From NCBI RefSeq assembly GCF_003018255.1, contig NZ_CP027440.1: a stretch of 64,000 nucleotides of DNA, one strand, 5' to 3'. Positions 56,681 through 63,872 of the stretch are shown one piece after another; positions within the stretch are counted from its first letter, which is position 1; each line of letters opens with the position of its first letter. A model generated the notes under the pieces. It saw only the letters and a program-made list of their open reading frames with translations, was not told the origin of the DNA and ran no database searches. Both the position numbers and the translations under genes were made by a program. Origin of the DNA: Escherichia coli. Its GTDB lineage: Bacteria; Pseudomonadota; Gammaproteobacteria; Enterobacterales; Enterobacteriaceae.

Positions 56681-57004
56681 AATCACCAGAAAAGTGATAA
56701 CAGAGGTTGTTGTGGCGGTGTTGTCACTCAGGCGTATGGTCAACCTGACAACCCGGTGCATTTTCTGGAGCAATGGAGGAAGCCCCAGCCATACTTACCG
56801 CCGCGCCATTTCGCGGATTGCCACAACCGGAAGCGCACGATCGAATTACATTTAACGACGACATATACAGAGAGACTAACTTCGCCGAGCGCTTTCGTGT
56901 TGTGTGCCTGCTTTTAACCACGTCAGGCGAGGTGGACCTGTTATTCCCCAACAACAAGGAGCTTGTTAATCTGGATATCCCCAACAACAATAAGAGTATT
57001 GAAT

Positions 57005-57448
57005 GTGATCGCTGAATTAACGGCAGCAATGACGGCTATTCGTGAAACCGCTCAGATTACAAAACTAATGAACGAGGCAAAAACTCAAGCTGAAGTAAAT
57101 GCGGCTATTGGTGAACTGAACTCAAAGCTTGCATCTATTCAGCACGAATGCGTGTCTCTCGTTGAGCTGGTGAGCACTTATCAAGAAATAAATGCTTCTC
57201 TCAAAGCTAAAATTGCAGAATTTGAAAACTTTGAGGCTCAGACGGAAGGTTATATCCTTAACCAACTTGAGTCGGGAACTTTTGTGTACTCGAAGGAGGT
57301 AACCGTGAACGGCGGCAGCATAATCATGCATCTTTGTCCAAAATGTTTTGGACAAAAGATAGTATCGATACTTCAACCATTCCCGGTTAGAGAACATGAG
57401 TTTTTCATAAAAGCAGGTGCCTCTACTGTGAAAATCAGTTTCTTATGA
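57005..57448 (+). CDS. Hypothetical prophage protein on the opposite strand to flanking early genes; predicted coiled-coil N-terminal half, Cys-containing C-terminal region
   Basis: ORF track 56963..57448; protein-like composition while overlapping minus ORFs look antisense-like (L/S/R/F-rich). Start uncertain (GTG 57005 with weak SD aagag; alternatives TTG 56963, ATG 57029). Confidence 0.5.
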   Translation: MIAELTAAMTAIRETAQITKLMNEAKTQAEVNAAIGELNSKLASIQHECVSLVELVSTYQEINASLKAKIAEFENFEAQTEGYILNQLESGTFVYSKEVTVNGGSIIMHLCPKCFGQKIVSILQPFPVREHEFFIKAGASTVKISFL

Positions 57449-57632
57449 ATAAAAATCCGGATTATGTATCGCCTCCATCTATTGAGGAGTTGGCCAGAAA
57501 ACTGAACGGCAATCTGTAGATTGTTACTGTTATGGATATCCAGATTGTTAAAGAGCATGCCGGATGCTTGCTTGTGTCCGGCGCGTGTGCACCAGTTCTC
57601 CCCGTGGAGGATTCCTTAACTACCAGACTTCA

Positions 57633-57785
57633 TTAGTCAGAGTTTCTTGCTAACCAGCGACGCGCGCCAGCTTCAGTTTTAAACGTTTTGCTTCTGGTAT
57701 ACGTCATCGCGGTAAACGTGCCGTCCTGGTTGGGGAATACTCCGCATACCAGAGATTCGTTGTTGCCAAGATTGAGCGTATCCAT
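57633..57785 (-). CDS. Small prophage protein (50 aa), function unknown
   Basis: Not in ORF track (<60 aa). Minus ORF MDTLNLGNNESLVCGVFPNQDGTFTAMTYTRSKTFKTEAGARRWLARNSD with SD tgaggt 4 nt upstream of ATG. Confidence 0.5.
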   Translation of the reverse strand: MDTLNLGNNESLVCGVFPNQDGTFTAMTYTRSKTFKTEAGARRWLARNSD

Positions 57786-58080
57786 GTTGACCTCATTTGC
57801 CCTTAACGCCGGGTCGCGGAACTAAAAACCTGCTGCGCTGTTATACAAAGTGTTCCCGCCGTCATGTTCATACGCCTCGGGCTGGCTACTTAACCCCTGA
57901 CCACTGCCTGGTAACTCGAAGTATTGCCTGGCGTTCTGTGGGGCGGGGTGGGTTGGTGATATAATGTACCTGCTGTTCATTAATGTAAAGTACTTTTAGT
58001 ACATTTTTGTGAGAGGTAAAATATCAGGAGGGGATGAGAGGAGCATAAACCCGGAGGGAAGCTACCGGATTTATGCAGAT

Positions 58081-58500
58081 TCAGGAGGCTTTTTGTTTTT
58101 TCTTTCGCGCTAATTCTTCATAAATTGCGTTGTACTTCTGTTTTTTCTCCTCAAGAGTTTTTAAAAGTTCATCAGTTTCACTGTCAGGGAGTTCATCAAG
58201 AAGTTCAATGATGATTTTTTGCTTCGGACTTAACTCCTGATAGAAACGCAGGCTTCCGCTTTCTTCAGTGTCCTCCCCCAGAAGGTAAGTTGGTGTTGTT
58301 CCGATAAGTGCTGCCAATTCTTTCAGTTTCTCTCGACGGGGAATTGCCTCTCCATTAAACCATTTACTAACCGCTTTGGGTGTTAGCTTCATTCGACGGG
58401 CAATTTCTGCCTGCCTTCCGTGTTGTTCAAAGCCAGCATTTTCACAGGCTAGCGCAAGCCTGCTGGCGAACTCTTTACGCGCTTCATCTTCATGAACCAT
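58081..58500 (-). CDS. Prophage repressor (CI functional analogue, XRE-type HTH, no S24 peptidase domain)
   Basis: ORF track 139 aa; HTH region RRMKLTPKAVSKWFNGEAIPRREKLKELAALIG; divergent from a cro-like gene; acidic C-terminal half. Confidence 0.75.
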   Translation of the reverse strand: MVHEDEARKEFASRLALACENAGFEQHGRQAEIARRMKLTPKAVSKWFNGEAIPRREKLKELAALIGTTPTYLLGEDTEESGSLRFYQELSPKQKIIIELLDELPDSETDELLKTLEEKKQKYNAIYEELARKKKQKAS

Positions 58501-58579
58501 AAGTTCAATGATATTTGCTATTGAATGTACTGTCAGTTCTGTTATATTGTGTACTCAAAGTTCACATTGTGAGGGTGAT
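58501..58579. promoter_or_regulatory. Divergent promoter/operator region of the immunity module (pRM-like and pR-like)
   Basis: Palindrome TTCAAT-N10-ATTGAA at 58504-58525; + strand -35 ttgaat (58521-26) and -10 tatatt (58543-48); minus strand -35 ctgaca and -10 tatcat placing the start within a few nt of the repressor ATG (leaderless). Confidence 0.55.
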
Positions 58580-58846
58580 ATGAGCCATACAACACTTGCA
58601 GATGTAATCAAAGCAGTTCGCGTTTCTGTTGTAGCCGATGTTTGCGGTGTCAGCCAAAGAGCAATCTACAAATGGATGAATAATGGAAAATTACCGCGCA
58701 CAGAATATACAGGCGAAACAAATTACGCTGAAAAAATTGCTCTGGCATCAAACGGATTATTTTCTGCTGATGCGGTTTTGACTATTGGCAGGATTAAGCC
58801 TACAGCGAATGAATCACTGGCGGTGAACAATGAAAATCACCCCTGA
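58580..58846 (+). CDS. Cro-like HTH regulator (YdaS-like)
   Basis: Internal ATG of ORF 58508..58846 with SD gagggtg; HTH ADVCGVSQRAIYKWMNNGKLP; divergent from the repressor. Confidence 0.7.
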   Translation: MSHTTLADVIKAVRVSVVADVCGVSQRAIYKWMNNGKLPRTEYTGETNYAEKIALASNGLFSADAVLTIGRIKPTANESLAVNNENHP

Positions 58847-59381
58847 ACAGGTTTGTGAGGCTCTGGATGCCTGGGTATGCCGACCAGGAATGACACAGGA
58901 GCAGGCGACGATATTAATCACGGAAGCATTCTGGGCTCTGAAAGAACGCCCGAACATCGATGTTCAACGCGTCACGTTTAATGATGGCGAGGTTGATCAA
59001 CGGGCGCTGGGCGTTAATCGAGTGAAGATATTCGAACGCTGGAAGGCTATCGACACCAGGGATAAGCGTGAAAAATTCACGGCGCTGATTCCGGCAATTA
59101 TGGAGGCTATCCGGGTAAGTGATTTCAGGTTGTATTGTGAAATTACTGACGGAAAAAGCATTACGTACATGATCGCCGGGTTAAACAAAGAGTATGGCGA
59201 TGTGGTGGAGTCCGGGCTGCTTTTTGCGGATCCAGTTGTTGTGGAACGTGAGACTGATGAGCTTATAGAAAAAGCCATTGCTTTCAAGCGTGCGTATCGT
59301 CAGCAATACCAACATTACTTTGCAGATAAACAAATATCTGTCTGGGGTTCGTATGAGTATCGATGCACTACGATGGGCTAA
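58830..59381 (+). CDS. Hypothetical protein in the CII position of the early-right operon
   Basis: ORF track 183 aa; overlaps the cro-like gene end by 17 nt; family not recognised. Confidence 0.6.
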   Translation: MKITPEQVCEALDAWVCRPGMTQEQATILITEAFWALKERPNIDVQRVTFNDGEVDQRALGVNRVKIFERWKAIDTRDKREKFTALIPAIMEAIRVSDFRLYCEITDGKSITYMIAGLNKEYGDVVESGLLFADPVVVERETDELIEKAIAFKRAYRQQYQHYFADKQISVWGSYEYRCTTMG

Positions 59382-60390
59382 AAAGGTGAAAACCGGCAGT
59401 TCATCCAGTAAGTCAGTATTGACCTGGCTTGCTGATATGTGCGGTGCCGATTTGTGCGCATACCCGTCTATATCTGCACTGGCAGAAGTAACGGAACTGA
59501 ACAAAAAGACTGTGCAGGACAGTTTACGACACCTGATGGAGATTGGGTTAATTGTTGATACTGGTGAGAGAAAAGGCAGAACAAAGCAAATTGTGGTGTA
59601 CCGACTTATCGGTGTAGAAGAAAGTGTTGCCGAGCCTGAATACACCCAAAAACGGGAGTCTTTAAAGGTGGGTAAAATTGGTACTGTTAATAAAAATAGT
59701 ACCGAAAATGGTTATGTTTCAGCACAAAACAGACCCAAAAACGGAACTCTTAGCTGCATGGAAAATAACCAAAGACACCCAAATTTTCCATCAAAGACAC
59801 CCAAAAACGGATCACGGAACCCAAAGGAACCCAAAGATCTAAACCCCACACATAACGCACGCGAGAGTGCTCCGACCAGTGAGCAGGAAGTTTTGTCGTT
59901 ACAGGCAGCGCCCCCTGTATTCTTGGATGGCCTGAGCGAACCCATCGGGAAATTTTCGATGACTACTGTCTGGCAGCCGTCGCTGGATTTTCGACAACGG
60001 GCAGTAGTGTGGGGTATGGCTCTGCCTGAGCCGGAATTTACACCTGCTGAGCTTGCCGCATTCCGGGATTACTGGATGGCGGAGGGGAAGGTTTTCACGC
60101 AGGTTCAGTGGGAGCAGAAATTTGCCCGTCACGTGCAGCACGTCAGGGCACAGGTAAAACCAGTCAGCAAGGGGGTAAGCCATGCAGCATCAGGTGGCAC
60201 GGCATCACGGGCAGTTCAGGAAATCCGGGCAGCACGCGAACAGTGGGAACGTGAAAACGGATTTATCAGCAACGGAAACGGCCTGGAAGCTGTGGGAGCT
60301 TATGGGGGAGGTGTATTCGAACCGCTGGACTCAGAAGAATGGGGCCGCACCTTCGAAGCTCTGGATTGCCCAGATTGGTGCGATGACTGA
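59353..60390 (+). CDS. Phage replication initiation protein (lambda O functional position; HTH N-terminus)
   Basis: Internal ATG 59353 of ORF 59278..60390 with SD gggg; N-terminus MSIDALRWAKKVKTG... typical of phage replication-initiator HTH domains. Confidence 0.65.
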   Translation: MSIDALRWAKKVKTGSSSSKSVLTWLADMCGADLCAYPSISALAEVTELNKKTVQDSLRHLMEIGLIVDTGERKGRTKQIVVYRLIGVEESVAEPEYTQKRESLKVGKIGTVNKNSTENGYVSAQNRPKNGTLSCMENNQRHPNFPSKTPKNGSRNPKEPKDLNPTHNARESAPTSEQEVLSLQAAPPVFLDGLSEPIGKFSMTTVWQPSLDFRQRAVVWGMALPEPEFTPAELAAFRDYWMAEGKVFTQVQWEQKFARHVQHVRAQVKPVSKGVSHAASGGTASRAVQEIRAAREQWERENGFISNGNGLEAVGAYGGGVFEPLDSEEWGRTFEALDCPDWCDD

Positions 60391-63506: not shown

Positions 63507-63659
63507 AAACGGTTTGCGGGGAAAGAAGAGTTAAGTAGAATTGCTGCGGGTGCTTGAGGCTGTCTGCCTCGGGCATGCCGCCGTAAGGCAGACAGAGAAA
63601 AGCCCCAGTTAACATTACGCGTCTTGCAGGACGCTTAACATTAATCTGAGGCCCAATCT

Positions 63660-63872
63660 ATGCTTCACAAACGTAGGTTAGCCTCTTACGTGCCGAAAGG
63701 CAAGGAGAAGCAGGCTATGAAGCAGCAAAAGGCGATGTTAATCGCCCTGATCGTCATCTGTATTACCGTTGTTGTGACGGCACTGGTAACGAGGAAAGAC
63801 CTCTGCGAGGTACGAATCCGAACCGGCCAGACGGAGGTCGCTGTCTTCGTAGACTACGAATCTGAGAAGTAA
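63660..63872 (+). CDS. mok: Mok-like reading frame (N-terminally extended frame required for hok translation)
   Basis: ORF track 70 aa MLHKRRLASYVPKGKEKQAMKQQKAM..., parallel to recalled K-12 MokC; same frame as hok. Confidence 0.5.
   Translation: MLHKRRLASYVPKGKEKQAMKQQKAMLIALIVICITVVVTALVTRKDLCEVRIRTGQTEVAVFVDYESEK
63717..63872 (+). CDS. hok: Hok/Gef-family type I toxin (HokD/RelF-like, 51 aa)
   Basis: MKQQKAMLIALIVICITVVVTALVTRKDLCEVRIRTGQTEVAVFVDYESEK is near-identical to recalled HokD/HokC; SD aaggagaag upstream of ATG 63717. Confidence 0.85.
   Translation: MKQQKAMLIALIVICITVVVTALVTRKDLCEVRIRTGQTEVAVFVDYESEK

Follow-up and report, generated by a model that had tools for sequence, protein, structure and literature searches.

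The CI repressor of phage lambda carries an S24 domain and is cleaved in a RecA-dependent manner; operator OR2 lies beside the -35 element of the maintenance promoter PRM and activates this promoter. The Gifsy repressors GfoR, GfhR and GtgR of Salmonella are lambdoid repressors of about 136 aa that have no cleavage motif and stay uncleaved on induction, and they were grouped with DicA, RacR and many E. coli homologues by the authors of that study (PMC3121763). DicA, a 135-aa protein of the cryptic prophage Qin in E. coli K-12, has Rem as the antirepressor that relieves it and is bistable with DicC (PMC10448788). In the cryptic prophage CP-933P of E. coli O157:H7, the PaaR2 transcript starts at the AUG, as mapped by 5'-RACE; the operators overlap both promoters and PL, and the neighbours are the Cro-like YdaS and the CII-like YdaT (PMC8630535, where the leaderless nature of the lambda cI mRNA is also cited as established). 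The strongest promoter of RacR, a 158-aa protein of the cryptic prophage Rac in K-12, yields a leaderless transcript as well (PMC9638921). Short uncleavable repressors with antirepressors and leaderless repressor mRNAs have both been published already, and the 139-aa repressor that we describe here, encoded in a 64,000-nucleotide stretch of E. coli DNA (the window), fits this known class.

The new repressor resembles lambda CI made from PRM in being divergent from cro and in facing a tripartite OR together with an OL, but lambda lacks the layout found here, with 15-bp operators, spacings of 24 and 33 bp and oR2 on the PRM -35 element. Going by its published description, PaaR2 works alike, as a CI analogue of ~15 kDa without an S24 domain that is divergent from YdaS and YdaT; it differs in sequence (beginning MQKKE), in its operators, which are GTTTAGTAA repeats, and in heading a toxin–antitoxin operon. 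RacR, a further CI analogue that cannot be cleaved, also has YdaS and YdaT beside it, but its similarity to the 139-aa repressor is weak in the helix-turn-helix (HTH) domain (36% over 33 aa) and their C-terminal halves are unrelated. DicA has the same two-domain plan without S24, and its gene holds the same position, flanked by a divergent cro-like gene and, downstream, by the ydfA (DUF1391)...dicB operon, whereas the HTH domain and operators of the 139-aa repressor are of the HK022 type, unlike the DicA type. Our main reading, to which we assign a probability of about 0.7, is that the protein is a natural chimera: the maintenance repressor of a Qin/Rac-like prophage at ompW that combines an HTH domain, Cro and operators of HK022 type with a DicA tail, is translated from a leaderless mRNA and is uncleavable.

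A short repressor at the CI position of a lambdoid prophage

The repressor gene and its neighbours are arranged as follows.

58081–58500, minus strand: repressor gene at the CI position of the prophage, 139 aa plus stop codon, from the list of open reading frames
58580–58846, plus strand: cro-like gene, 88 aa, with a GAGGG Shine–Dalgarno sequence; 61% identical to HK022 Cro (E 4e-33)
58830–59381, plus strand: YdaT-family gene at the CII position, 183 aa; Pfam YdaT_toxin (E 1.3e-5) and PHROG 163, 'CII-like transcriptional activator' (E 4.7e-41)
58043–58076, minus strand: hairpin 4 nt past the repressor stop codon; dG -18.8 kcal/mol, z -5.15, with 0 of 200 shuffles as stable
57633–57785, minus strand: DUF1391 (YdfA/YdaF-like) gene, first in the PL operon; Pfam DUF1391 (E 5e-30)

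The repressor reading frame is the first-start frame at its position, its DNA matches an annotated E. coli prophage at 100%, and the protein is annotated as WP_024213827.1 in NZ_AP042564.1. The deposited phage genomes Tritos and vB_EcoS-673R7 carry repressors that are 93% identical, the one in Tritos being labelled 'CI repressor'. Repressor and OR occur together in 1046 of 5426 complete E. coli genomes (~19%); in O157:H7 and many other strains, a Rac-like prophage at ttcA has this type of repressor in place of RacR. The data support a role for the 139-aa protein as the lysogeny-maintenance repressor, at the CI position, of an E. coli lambdoid prophage.

Gene order in the prophage (repressor-DUF1391-...-dicB-DUF1482-exo-xis-int) is that of Qin, in which ydfA holds the same position after dicA. 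Among 80 related viral loci, the genes that travel with the repressor are the cro-like gene, which adjoins it in all 80, a PL-leader reading frame (75) and the DUF1391 gene next to it (74); hok was not among the queries in this set. A comparison of four backbones gave the cro-like gene, DUF1391, short PL-leader reading frames and hok as the whole genes that accompany the repressor in Tritos and Rac-like phage. The YdaT-family gene at the CII position varies among relatives, and in the Salmonella relatives P0012 and P0013 the repressor is followed by HigB/HigA, in a locus unlike Gifsy. The PL operon also separates this prophage, with its DUF1391-dicB genes, from HK022, which has nun and put sites there; folding of the PL leader gave no structured RNA of the put or nut kind (z-score +1.1), and sok was the only Rfam family found. 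The hairpin behind the repressor gene is kept in the O157 and Tritos variants and is followed by a C-rich, G-poor tract. No intrinsic terminator was called there by the scan, and the hairpin is probably the end or an insulator of the repressor transcript.

An HK022-type DNA-binding domain joined to a DicA-type tail

The protein divides into three parts.

58276–58500, minus strand: N-terminal DNA-binding domain, aa 1–75, XRE helix-turn-helix of HK022 CI type (Pfam, sequence identity, AlphaFold2)
58231–58275, minus strand: acidic flexible linker, aa 76–90 (alignments, AlphaFold2)
58084–58230, minus strand: DicA-type C-terminal helical module, aa 91–139 (BLASTP, NCBIfam, protein-cluster search, AlphaFold2)

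The first-pass annotation had described an N-terminal XRE HTH followed by an acidic helical half that lacks an S24 peptidase signature, and our domain searches agree with it. Pfam matched only HTH_3 (aa 29–73, E 1.2e-9) and related HTH models; Peptidase_S24 was not found at E<=0.1, nor was any match past aa 76. Residues 76–139 hold 16 D/E against 12 K/R. AlphaFold2 (mean pLDDT 81) places a five-helix HTH domain at aa 2–74 (pLDDT 88–94), a disordered linker (residues 78–88 below 50) and then a helical hairpin, H92–103 and H106–138. Read from the sequence, the linker (EDTEESGSLRFYQEL) has no Ala-Gly or Cys-Gly scissile bond, and the sole Ala-Gly of the protein, A22-G23, falls within the HTH domain. 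With a DicA-type helical module in place of the entire S24 domain, this protein cannot undergo autocleavage in the manner of LexA or CI; RecA-stimulated cleavage had earlier been called unlikely.

The N-terminal domain is 58.7% identical to aa 1–75 of HK022 CI and about 70% identical to the N-termini of S24 repressors of 235–240 aa, and the start of the protein (MVHE/MVQE) is kept in all relatives. Similarity to the S24-bearing relatives (P0024, P0025 and HK022 CI) is confined to aa 1–75 and stops at the linker. HK022 CI (235 codons, X16093) continues with its S24 domain for autocleavage and cooperativity, whereas a 50-aa helical tail stands here instead.

It is this tail that connects the protein to DicA. 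BLASTP aligned both domains with K-12 DicA (aa 30–137 with DicA 23–134, 30% identity, E 9e-16), and the motif L-S-P-[KR]-x(2,3)-[IL]-[IL]-E-L-[LF]-x2-L-P-x-S-E is common to the two tails. The best NCBIfam match was the DicA subfamily NF007257 (profile positions 20–132 of 135) at 56.7 bits; this is under the curated cut-off of 101 bits, so we regard the repressor as a relative outside the curated subfamily. A search among 1.84 billion representative proteins matched the tail to 36 protein clusters at E<=1e-3, invariably at the C terminus of proteins of 117–185 aa and on several unrelated HTH domains; PaaR2 was not among these relatives. By these matches, the tail is a portable helical module of ~50 aa.

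The tail belongs to no Pfam family. It has no sequence relative in the PDB, where the best hits, the N-terminal domain of L7/L12 and Rop, were not significant (E 0.16–0.4), and Foldseek with the full repressor model returned matches to the HTH domain and none to the tail. We presume that the tail serves for dimerisation, for contact with an antirepressor, or for both. A tandem-tail AlphaFold2 model, which hints at dimerisation, contains one short strand per copy (E7–9 and E86–88), each being the other's sole possible partner; the linker-joined model had no PDB match. The literature held nothing usable on DicA domain studies, the start site of the HK022 maintenance promoter or phage Tritos.

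HK022-type operators and a probable leaderless start

The control region contains the following sites; the operators and the palindrome are given without strand.

58493–58507: operator oR3, TGAACCATAAGTTCA, centred on the repressor start codon (58498–58500); aligned with HK022
58526–58540: operator oR2, TGTACTGTCAGTTCT, in the PR spacer and covering the predicted PRM -35; aligned with HK022 oR2
58550–58564: operator oR1, TGTACTCAAAGTTCA, directly downstream of the PR -10; aligned with HK022 oR1
58521–58548, plus strand: predicted PR, driving the cro-like gene; -35 TTGAAT (58521–58526), 16-bp spacer, TG-extended -10 TATATT (promoter scan)
58508–58536, minus strand: predicted maintenance promoter (PRM-like); -35 CTGACA (58531–58536), 17-bp spacer, -10 TATCAT (58508–58513) (promoter scan, 10/12 matches)
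57961–58003, minus strand: OL/PL, with operators at 57965–57979 (TGTACCTGCTGTTCA) and 57989–58003 (AGTACTTTTAGTACA) spaced by 24 bp
57984–57989 and 57961–57966, minus strand: PL -35 TTTACA and -10 CATTAT (promoter scan); aligned with oL and pL of HK022/HK75
58504–58525: palindrome TTCAAT-N10-ATTGAA, at the right edge of oR3 and the PR -35

The immunity regions of HK022 and HK75 (GenBank X16093 and HM173637) align with the window throughout: in the 15-bp operators, the spacings of 24 and 33 bp, the position of oR3 on the start codon, PR, PL and the paired oL sites. oR3 has both the sequence and the position of the annotated HK022 oR site that overlaps the cI start. oR2 aligns with HK022 oR2 TGTACTATCAGTTCC, its distances to oR3 (33 bp) and to oR1 (24 bp) are those of HK022, and the predicted PR aligns with the annotated HK022 pR. 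A regular expression derived from the operators matched the 64-kb window at four places only, all of them OR/OL sites; of the five such sites it missed the oL site at 57989–58003, which does not conform to it. Salmonella and Raoultella relatives show the same layout of operators and promoters. Judged by these alignments, the real operators are the 15-bp HK022-type sites, three of them at OR. HK022 CI has nearly the same recognition helix (TPKAVSKWFNG versus TPKAISKWFNG); because of this near-identity and the identity of oR3, we predict cross-immunity with HK022.

The maintenance promoter had been proposed to set the transcript start within a few nucleotides of the ATG, with no Shine–Dalgarno sequence. 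The promoter scan fits this picture with a sigma-70-like promoter: 7 nt (TGAACTT) separate the -10 element from the repressor ATG, from which we infer a start at 58500 or 58501. Pairing of the 16S rRNA 3' end with the 20 nt upstream of the ATG reached +0.4 kcal/mol at best, against -6.8 to -9.1 for three neighbouring genes. The Rac-like variant of O157:H7 differs at 2 bases in the 40 nt upstream. HK022 shares the upstream geometry (CTGAYA-17-TATNNT-7 nt-ATG), and eight relatives, S24-bearing ones among them, have the identical arrangement of -35, 17-bp spacer, -10, 7 nt and ATG without a Shine–Dalgarno sequence. Together with the conserved MVHE/MVQE start and the mapped precedents of PaaR2 (PMC8630535), RacR (PMC9638921) and lambda cI, these features support a leaderless repressor mRNA. 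Gene callers, finding no ribosome-binding site at the true repressor start, extend this gene and the neighbouring cro-like gene upstream, and these calls are corrected here. The predicted PRM -35 sits inside oR2 (centre at about -33), unlike in lambda, where OR2 is beside it; PRM would then be purely negatively autoregulated, or else the promoter assignment is incomplete.

Search for an induction route

The published route by which relatives are relieved is an antirepressor, Rem for DicA (PMC10448788) and antirepressors of the Gifsy repressors (PMC3121763), and by analogy we infer the same for the 139-aa repressor. The rest of the prophage had been suggested as a place to look for an antirepressor; the search gave no cognate one. 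When the prophage, about 55 kb long, was searched by tblastn, no homologue of Rem turned up. The rem position is taken by a gene for a 90-aa protein (WP_032296757.1) that bears no relation to Rem, belongs to PHROG 1212 (unknown function), and is shared with Tritos and absent from Rac-like carriers; rem-like genes lie <=10 kb from the repressor in just two of 80 related loci. An exact CTGT-N8-ACAG LexA box is absent from the whole prophage, and the best relaxed CTG-N10-CAG site of the prophage (15/20) falls inside a methyltransferase gene. In the 80 related viral loci (1.05 Mb), the sole recurrent good LexA box, TACTGTTTTTATTAACAGTA, is inside a DnaT-like replication gene and is abolished in the window by synonymous changes. 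A CTGT-N8-ACAG match in a Salmonella relative has a GC-rich centre and overlaps a Shine–Dalgarno sequence and start codon; we set it aside as probably due to chance.

Gifsy induction, again taken from the published description, runs through a LexA-controlled dinI-antirepressor operon about 1.3 kb past the replication genes, whereas no such LexA-boxed operon was found in this prophage or near the repressor in the 80 related loci. No antirepressor-like gene travelled with the repressor in these 80 loci or in the four backbones. One prophage protein, of the Rha/ORF11CD3 kind (WP_000877795.1), does match PHROG anti-repressor families; its gene is located after the lysis genes and is presumably therefore expressed late.

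Alternative explanations

The repressor mRNA could have a conventional leader, with CTGACA/TATCAT fortuitous or minor and the working promoter or promoters farther upstream, in or beyond the cro-like gene and perhaps PRE-like. Promoter-like sites number four per 1.5 kb against 2.1 +/- 1.5 in shuffles, so that the scan alone is not significant; there is a leftward promoter-like site within the cro-like gene (58784->58756), a gene for a CII-type activator is present, RacR has further upstream promoters (PMC9638921), and oR2 overlaps the proposed PRM -35. Yet among the eight relatives the hexamers, the 17-bp length and the 7-nt distance to the ATG stay while the spacer sequence varies, and a longer leader would still lack a Shine–Dalgarno sequence. 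The divergent start codons of the repressor and the cro-like gene are just 79 bp apart, the principal transcripts mapped for PaaR2 and RacR, with the same layout, are leaderless (PMC8630535, PMC9638921), and a PRE-type transcript could coexist with a leaderless PRM transcript without contradiction. We consider a conventional leader unlikely and retain the leaderless start. Somewhat less probable again is inactivation of the repressor by a separate protease in place of an antirepressor, either of the ImmA/IrrE type or Lon/ClpXP recruited under stress. Tritos, with its 93% identical repressor, does encode TRITO_41, a fusion of an ImmA/IrrE metalloprotease and an XRE domain, and the long disordered acidic linker (aa 76–90) would be an open cleavage site. 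However, the annotations of this prophage and of the Rac-like carriers list no ImmA/IrrE gene, so the protease does not travel with the repressor, and the characterised relatives, the Gifsy repressors and DicA, are relieved without cleavage (PMC3121763, PMC10448788).

Two further alternatives concern what the operators and the tail are. The first-pass annotation had drawn attention to the 22-bp palindrome between the divergent genes, which might itself be the operator of both promoters, bound by the repressor, by Cro or by the YdaT-like protein. It is indeed there, perfect in the window and overlapping the PRM -10 and the PR -35, and the site of CP-933P YdaT, TTGATT-N6-AATCAA, is likewise an inverted repeat of a similar kind (PMC9986795). 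As a regulatory element in its own right it does not hold up: when the same 120 bp were shuffled with dinucleotides preserved, 60% of the shuffles contained one or more perfect 6+6 inverted repeats (spacer 0–20), a variant common to about 1000 E. coli genomes lacks the outer pair (5/6 pairs), HK022 keeps 4/6 pairs, and OL has no second copy. Both arms are accounted for by other elements, namely the oR3 half-site AGTTCA and the PR -35 TTGAAT, of which the palindrome is a by-product, and we give very little credence to its acting as an operator. Least probable of all is that the gene is the decayed remnant of an S24-type, HK022-like cI whose C-terminal 60 aa are out of frame or junk. The sharp end of similarity at the linker, after 75 aa that are 59–70% identical to true S24 repressors, would suit such a remnant, but the tail aligns with DicA, its 36 matching clusters are all at the C termini of complete short proteins with differing HTH domains, it is modelled as helical with pLDDT of about 80–87, and 1046 genomes as well as deposited phage genomes carry it intact. 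We dropped the degenerate-gene reading on the strength of this conserved, DicA-homologous and intact module.

Discussion

The chimera reading suggests the following scheme. Dimers held together by the helical tail would bind 15-bp sites with the consensus TG(T/A)AC(T/C)-N3-(A/G)GT(T/A)CA, shutting PR through oR1 and oR2 and PL through the two oL sites, each pair 24 bp apart. Synthesis of the repressor is probably self-limiting, as oR2 and oR3 overlap its own promoter and start codon. Its mRNA would begin at the AUG or 1 nt before it and be translated leaderless, as for the mapped lambda cI, PaaR2 and RacR transcripts. RecA would be unable to trigger self-cleavage because there is no S24 domain. 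Derepression would then have to come either from a protein antagonist, as Rem acts on DicA and GfoA/GftA on the Gifsy repressors, which another prophage might provide in trans, or from the bistable switch of repressor and Cro flipping stochastically or under stress.

We tentatively suggest, as a possibility short of an even chance, that a single immunity specificity, defined by HTH domain, Cro and operators of HK022 type, exists in two induction formats. One would be SOS-cleavable and built on S24, with HK022, HK75 and Klebsiella and Raoultella phages as members; the other would be uncleavable and built on the portable, uncurated DicA-type module of ~50 aa. If this is true, the tail would be a plug-in that provides dimerisation and makes the repressor answer to antirepressors or to switch noise, not to RecA, and the repressor would give about 19% of E. 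coli genomes an SOS-resistant immunity to HK022-type phages. The clean domain swap, with homologous HTH domains (about 59–70% identical) and aligned operators but S24 in HK022 and a DicA-type tail here, provides a matched pair. This pair bears on the role of the tail in dimerisation, cooperativity and antirepressor docking, and on how induction modes evolve separately from immunity specificity. It also bears on whether there is SOS-proof immunity against HK022-like phages in E. coli, about one in five genomes of which carry this repressor, including an O157:H7 genome through its Rac-like prophage.

Prophage setting and distribution

The stretch at 57600-59400 matched E. coli chromosomes at 99.9-100% in a database search with the window DNA. 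In strain OkiPb01694, the matching stretch is part of a lambdoid prophage integrated at ompW, in which int, xis, a RecE-like exonuclease gene, DUF1482, dicB, DUF1391 and the repressor gene are followed by the divergent cro-like gene, a YdaT-family gene, replication genes, Q, and the lysis, head and tail genes. Repressor and right operator (OR) were found together in 1,046 of 5,426 complete E. coli genomes. Most carriers have a variant with 89% DNA and 93% protein identity, which in one O157:H7 genome occupies the RacR position of a Rac-like prophage at ttcA; the deposited phages Tritos and vB_EcoS-673R7 also encode 93%-identical repressors.

Several neighbouring features were observed. The DUF1391 gene (57633-57785, minus strand, 50 amino acids) is the first gene past PL, holds the slot of N in lambda and nun in HK022, and was found with this repressor at 74 of the 80 related loci. 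In Qin it comes after DicA, and in Rac after RacR with the short ydaG between. A 161-amino-acid ORF on the opposite strand within the PL operon (56963-57448, plus strand), with one weak DUF3450 match as its only family match, lies roughly at the sieB position of Rac-like prophages. Its OkiPb01694 counterpart is annotated with other ends (window equivalent 57004-57519), so an indel may separate the two. A hok/sok toxin-antitoxin locus lies in the nin region (63548-63722, plus strand; Rfam sok, 117.7 bits), overlapped by a Hok-family ORF (63660-63872, plus strand). Beyond the window, in the same prophage (L002, 12922-17859), the tape-measure gene carries a frameshift annotation and a gene for an ompC-like porin lies amid the tail genes, so this copy may be defective. 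In a Salmonella prophage (L008, 10588-11255), a HigB/HigA-like toxin-antitoxin pair directly follows a 61%-identical short repressor, an order that recalls paaR2-paaA2-parE2 of CP-933P.

A repressor of two known types

The repressor ORF (58081-58500, minus strand, 139 amino acids) uses the first possible start codon of its frame. Pfam returned only XRE-type helix-turn-helix (HTH) models (HTH_3, residues 29-73, E = 1.2e-9); the C-terminal half gave no match, and Peptidase_S24 was absent. In the AlphaFold2 model (mean pLDDT 81), a five-helix HTH domain (residues 2-74) is followed by a disordered linker (78-88) and a helical hairpin (92-103 and 106-138). Acidic residues outnumber basic ones, 16 to 12, over positions 76-139, and no Ala-Gly was seen on inspection of the linker. 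The first-pass annotation, which described an XRE-type repressor with an acidic helical C-terminal half and no peptidase signature, is borne out in each respect.

Database relatives fell into two groups: full-length proteins of 138-139 amino acids from E. coli and Salmonella, and S24 repressors of 235-240 amino acids (Raoultella, Trabulsiella and Klebsiella phages) that share about 70% identity over residues 1-75 and are unrelated beyond. In comparisons with deposited phages, the N-terminal domain shares 58.7% identity with HK022 CI, with a nearly identical recognition helix (TPKAVSKWFNG versus TPKAISKWFNG), and 57% with HK75 CI. The C-terminal half aligns with DicA of K-12 Qin (LSPKQKIIIELLDELPDSETDELL...YNAIYEEL versus LSPKELELLELFNALPESEQDTQL...FNKLFEEL). 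BLASTP of the whole repressor against DicA gave 30% identity (E = 9e-16), and the best NCBIfam match was the DicA subfamily model, under its cut-off (56.7 versus 101 bits). The tail alone (residues 91-139), searched against 1.84 billion representative proteins, gave 36 matches at E <= 1e-3, each at the C terminus of a protein of 117-185 amino acids. Because it is found there behind HTH domains of several unrelated kinds, the tail is a portable module; no Pfam family, solved-structure sequence relative or structural match was found for it, and the C-terminal half of RacR is unrelated. Sequence comparison thus identifies the repressor as a chimera of HK022-type immunity specificity and a DicA-type tail.

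HK022-type operators

Window OR and OL align base for base with operator DNA annotated in GenBank for HK022 (X16093) and HK75, in which three 15-bp oR sites (oR1-oR2, 24 bp; oR2-oR3, 33 bp), with oR3 over the cI start codon, are accompanied by paired oL sites at pL.

Predicted operators in the window
58493-58507, oR3: TGAACCATAAGTTCA; HK022 counterpart identical; centred on the repressor ATG
58526-58540, oR2: TGTACTGTCAGTTCT; HK022 counterpart TGTACTATCAGTTCC
58550-58564, oR1: TGTACTCAAAGTTCA; HK022 counterpart TGAACCATAAGTTCA
57965-57979, oL: TGTACCTGCTGTTCA; aligned with HK022
57989-58003, oL: AGTACTTTTAGTACA; aligned with HK022

The same layout occurs in the Salmonella short-repressor relative and the Raoultella S24 relative. 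A regular expression built from the operators matched four of the five sites, with no other match across the 64-kb window, and the Cro-like protein and HK022 Cro share 61% identity. These HK022-type sites are the probable operators. The palindrome TTCAAT-N10-ATTGAA noted earlier does exist, at 58504-58525, but was rejected as an operator: a perfect 6+6 inverted repeat arose in 60% of shuffles of the region, the common E. coli variant lacks one of the pairs and HK022 lacks two, and the arms are the oR3 edge (AGTTCAat) and the PR -35 (aTTGAAt). It is a chance by-product; the first-pass observation is otherwise confirmed, and its interpretation is supported in part.

Promoters and a probable leaderless start

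A promoter scan placed CTGACA-17-TATCAT (minus strand, 10 of 12 matches) 7 nt ahead of the repressor ATG, and predicted PR as TTGAAT-16-TG-TATATT and PL as TTTACA-17-CATTAT. The count alone was not significant (4 matches in 1.5 kb versus 2.1 +/- 1.5 in shuffles), and the case therefore rests on relatives. All eight loci compared (the window, the O157 Rac-like variant, Tritos, 673R7, HK022, HK75 and the Salmonella and Raoultella relatives) share CTGA(C/T)A, 17 bp, TAT(C/A/G)(A/G/C)T, 7 nt and ATG, with differing spacer sequences. None has a Shine-Dalgarno sequence before the repressor start (anti-SD pairing no better than -2.7 kcal/mol, versus -6.8 to -9.1 kcal/mol for the three adjacent genes of the window and for HK022 cro), and all repressor relatives begin MVHE or MVQE. 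As sigma-70 promoters usually start 6-8 nt past the -10 hexamer, the predicted +1 is placed at 58501 or 58500. The lambda cI transcript has long been known to start at its AUG. AUG-starting transcripts have also been mapped for PaaR2, by 5'-RACE, N-terminal sequencing and mass spectrometry (PMC8630535), and for RacR, by primer extension (PMC9638921). Given these precedents and the conserved geometry and missing Shine-Dalgarno sequence, the leaderless start proposed in the first pass is credible. It comes down from the HK022-type immunity region, is not tied to S24 loss, and is not unusual for this class of repressors.

The predicted -35 (58531-58536) is fully covered by oR2 (58526-58540; centre about -33 from the ATG), as in HK022. 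In lambda, by contrast, OR2 lies beside the PRM -35 and activates PRM. The overlap points to a fairly strong repressor promoter under simple negative, not positive, autoregulation, or else to an unrecognised promoter arrangement. Inside the 3' portion of the cro-like gene, shortly ahead of the YdaT-family gene, TAGTCA-17-AATAAT (58756-58784, minus strand) resembles a leftward promoter and may serve as a PRE-type establishment promoter, by analogy with the YdaT-activated PRE of CP-933P.

Automatic annotation stretches genes upstream here: the ATG at 58508 gives a possible longer cro ORF (58508-58846, plus strand, 112 amino acids), Tritos (L003, 14750-15076) is annotated with the long cro form, 7 nt from the repressor gene, and several repressor relatives (P0013, P0024 and P0029) carry 4-15 additional N-terminal residues. 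This may in part be because the true repressor start has no ribosome-binding site. Four nucleotides past the repressor stop codon lies a 14-bp hairpin (58043-58076, minus strand; dG -18.8 kcal/mol, z -5.15, 0 of 200 shuffles equally stable), which the O157 and Tritos variants have kept; it is followed by UCCUCUCAUCCCCUCC, with no U-tract (C-rich tract, 58020-58042). The hairpin may stabilise the 3' end, or act as a Rho-dependent stop shielding the PL operon from repressor transcription.

Route to induction

RecA-stimulated self-cleavage, already judged unlikely in the first pass, is excluded because the repressor lacks an S24 domain. Gifsy relatives are relieved by small, LexA-controlled antirepressors (PMC3121763) and DicA by Rem (PMC10448788). 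The DicA/DicC switch can also be flipped by heat or urea independently of Rem and RecA (PMC10448788), and the PaaR2/YdaS repressor/Cro-like switch of CP-933P is bistable (PMC8630535). Neither a Rem homologue nor a canonical LexA box was found in the prophage. There are three weak candidates: a Rha/ORF11CD3 protein encoded past the lysis genes, with PHROG anti-repressor family matches; an ORF6N pseudogene near attR; and a 90-amino-acid protein at the rem position. Across four backbones, the whole genes common to Tritos and the Rac-like phage were the cro-like gene, DUF1391, short PL-leader ORFs and hok; the cro-like gene, DUF1391 and a PL-leader ORF accompany the repressor in the 80 related viral loci. 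Tritos has an ImmA/IrrE-XRE gene absent from the other backbones compared. Relief would come from a protein antagonist, possibly in trans, or from flipping of the switch, with a combined probability of about one half; inactivation by a separate protease is improbable.

Some near-identical prophages have a near-consensus LexA box, TACTGTTTTTATTAACAGTA, within a DnaT-like replication gene (codons TVNKNST; L017, 8560-8579, and also L014, L015 and L016). The homologous window position, about 59700, has synonymous changes that abolish it.

The repressor belongs to the already known DicA/Gifsy class of uncleavable repressors, with a predicted leaderless mRNA in the style of lambda, PaaR2 and RacR. 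Its sole noteworthy aspect is that one protein joins HK022-type immunity specificity to a DicA-type tail.
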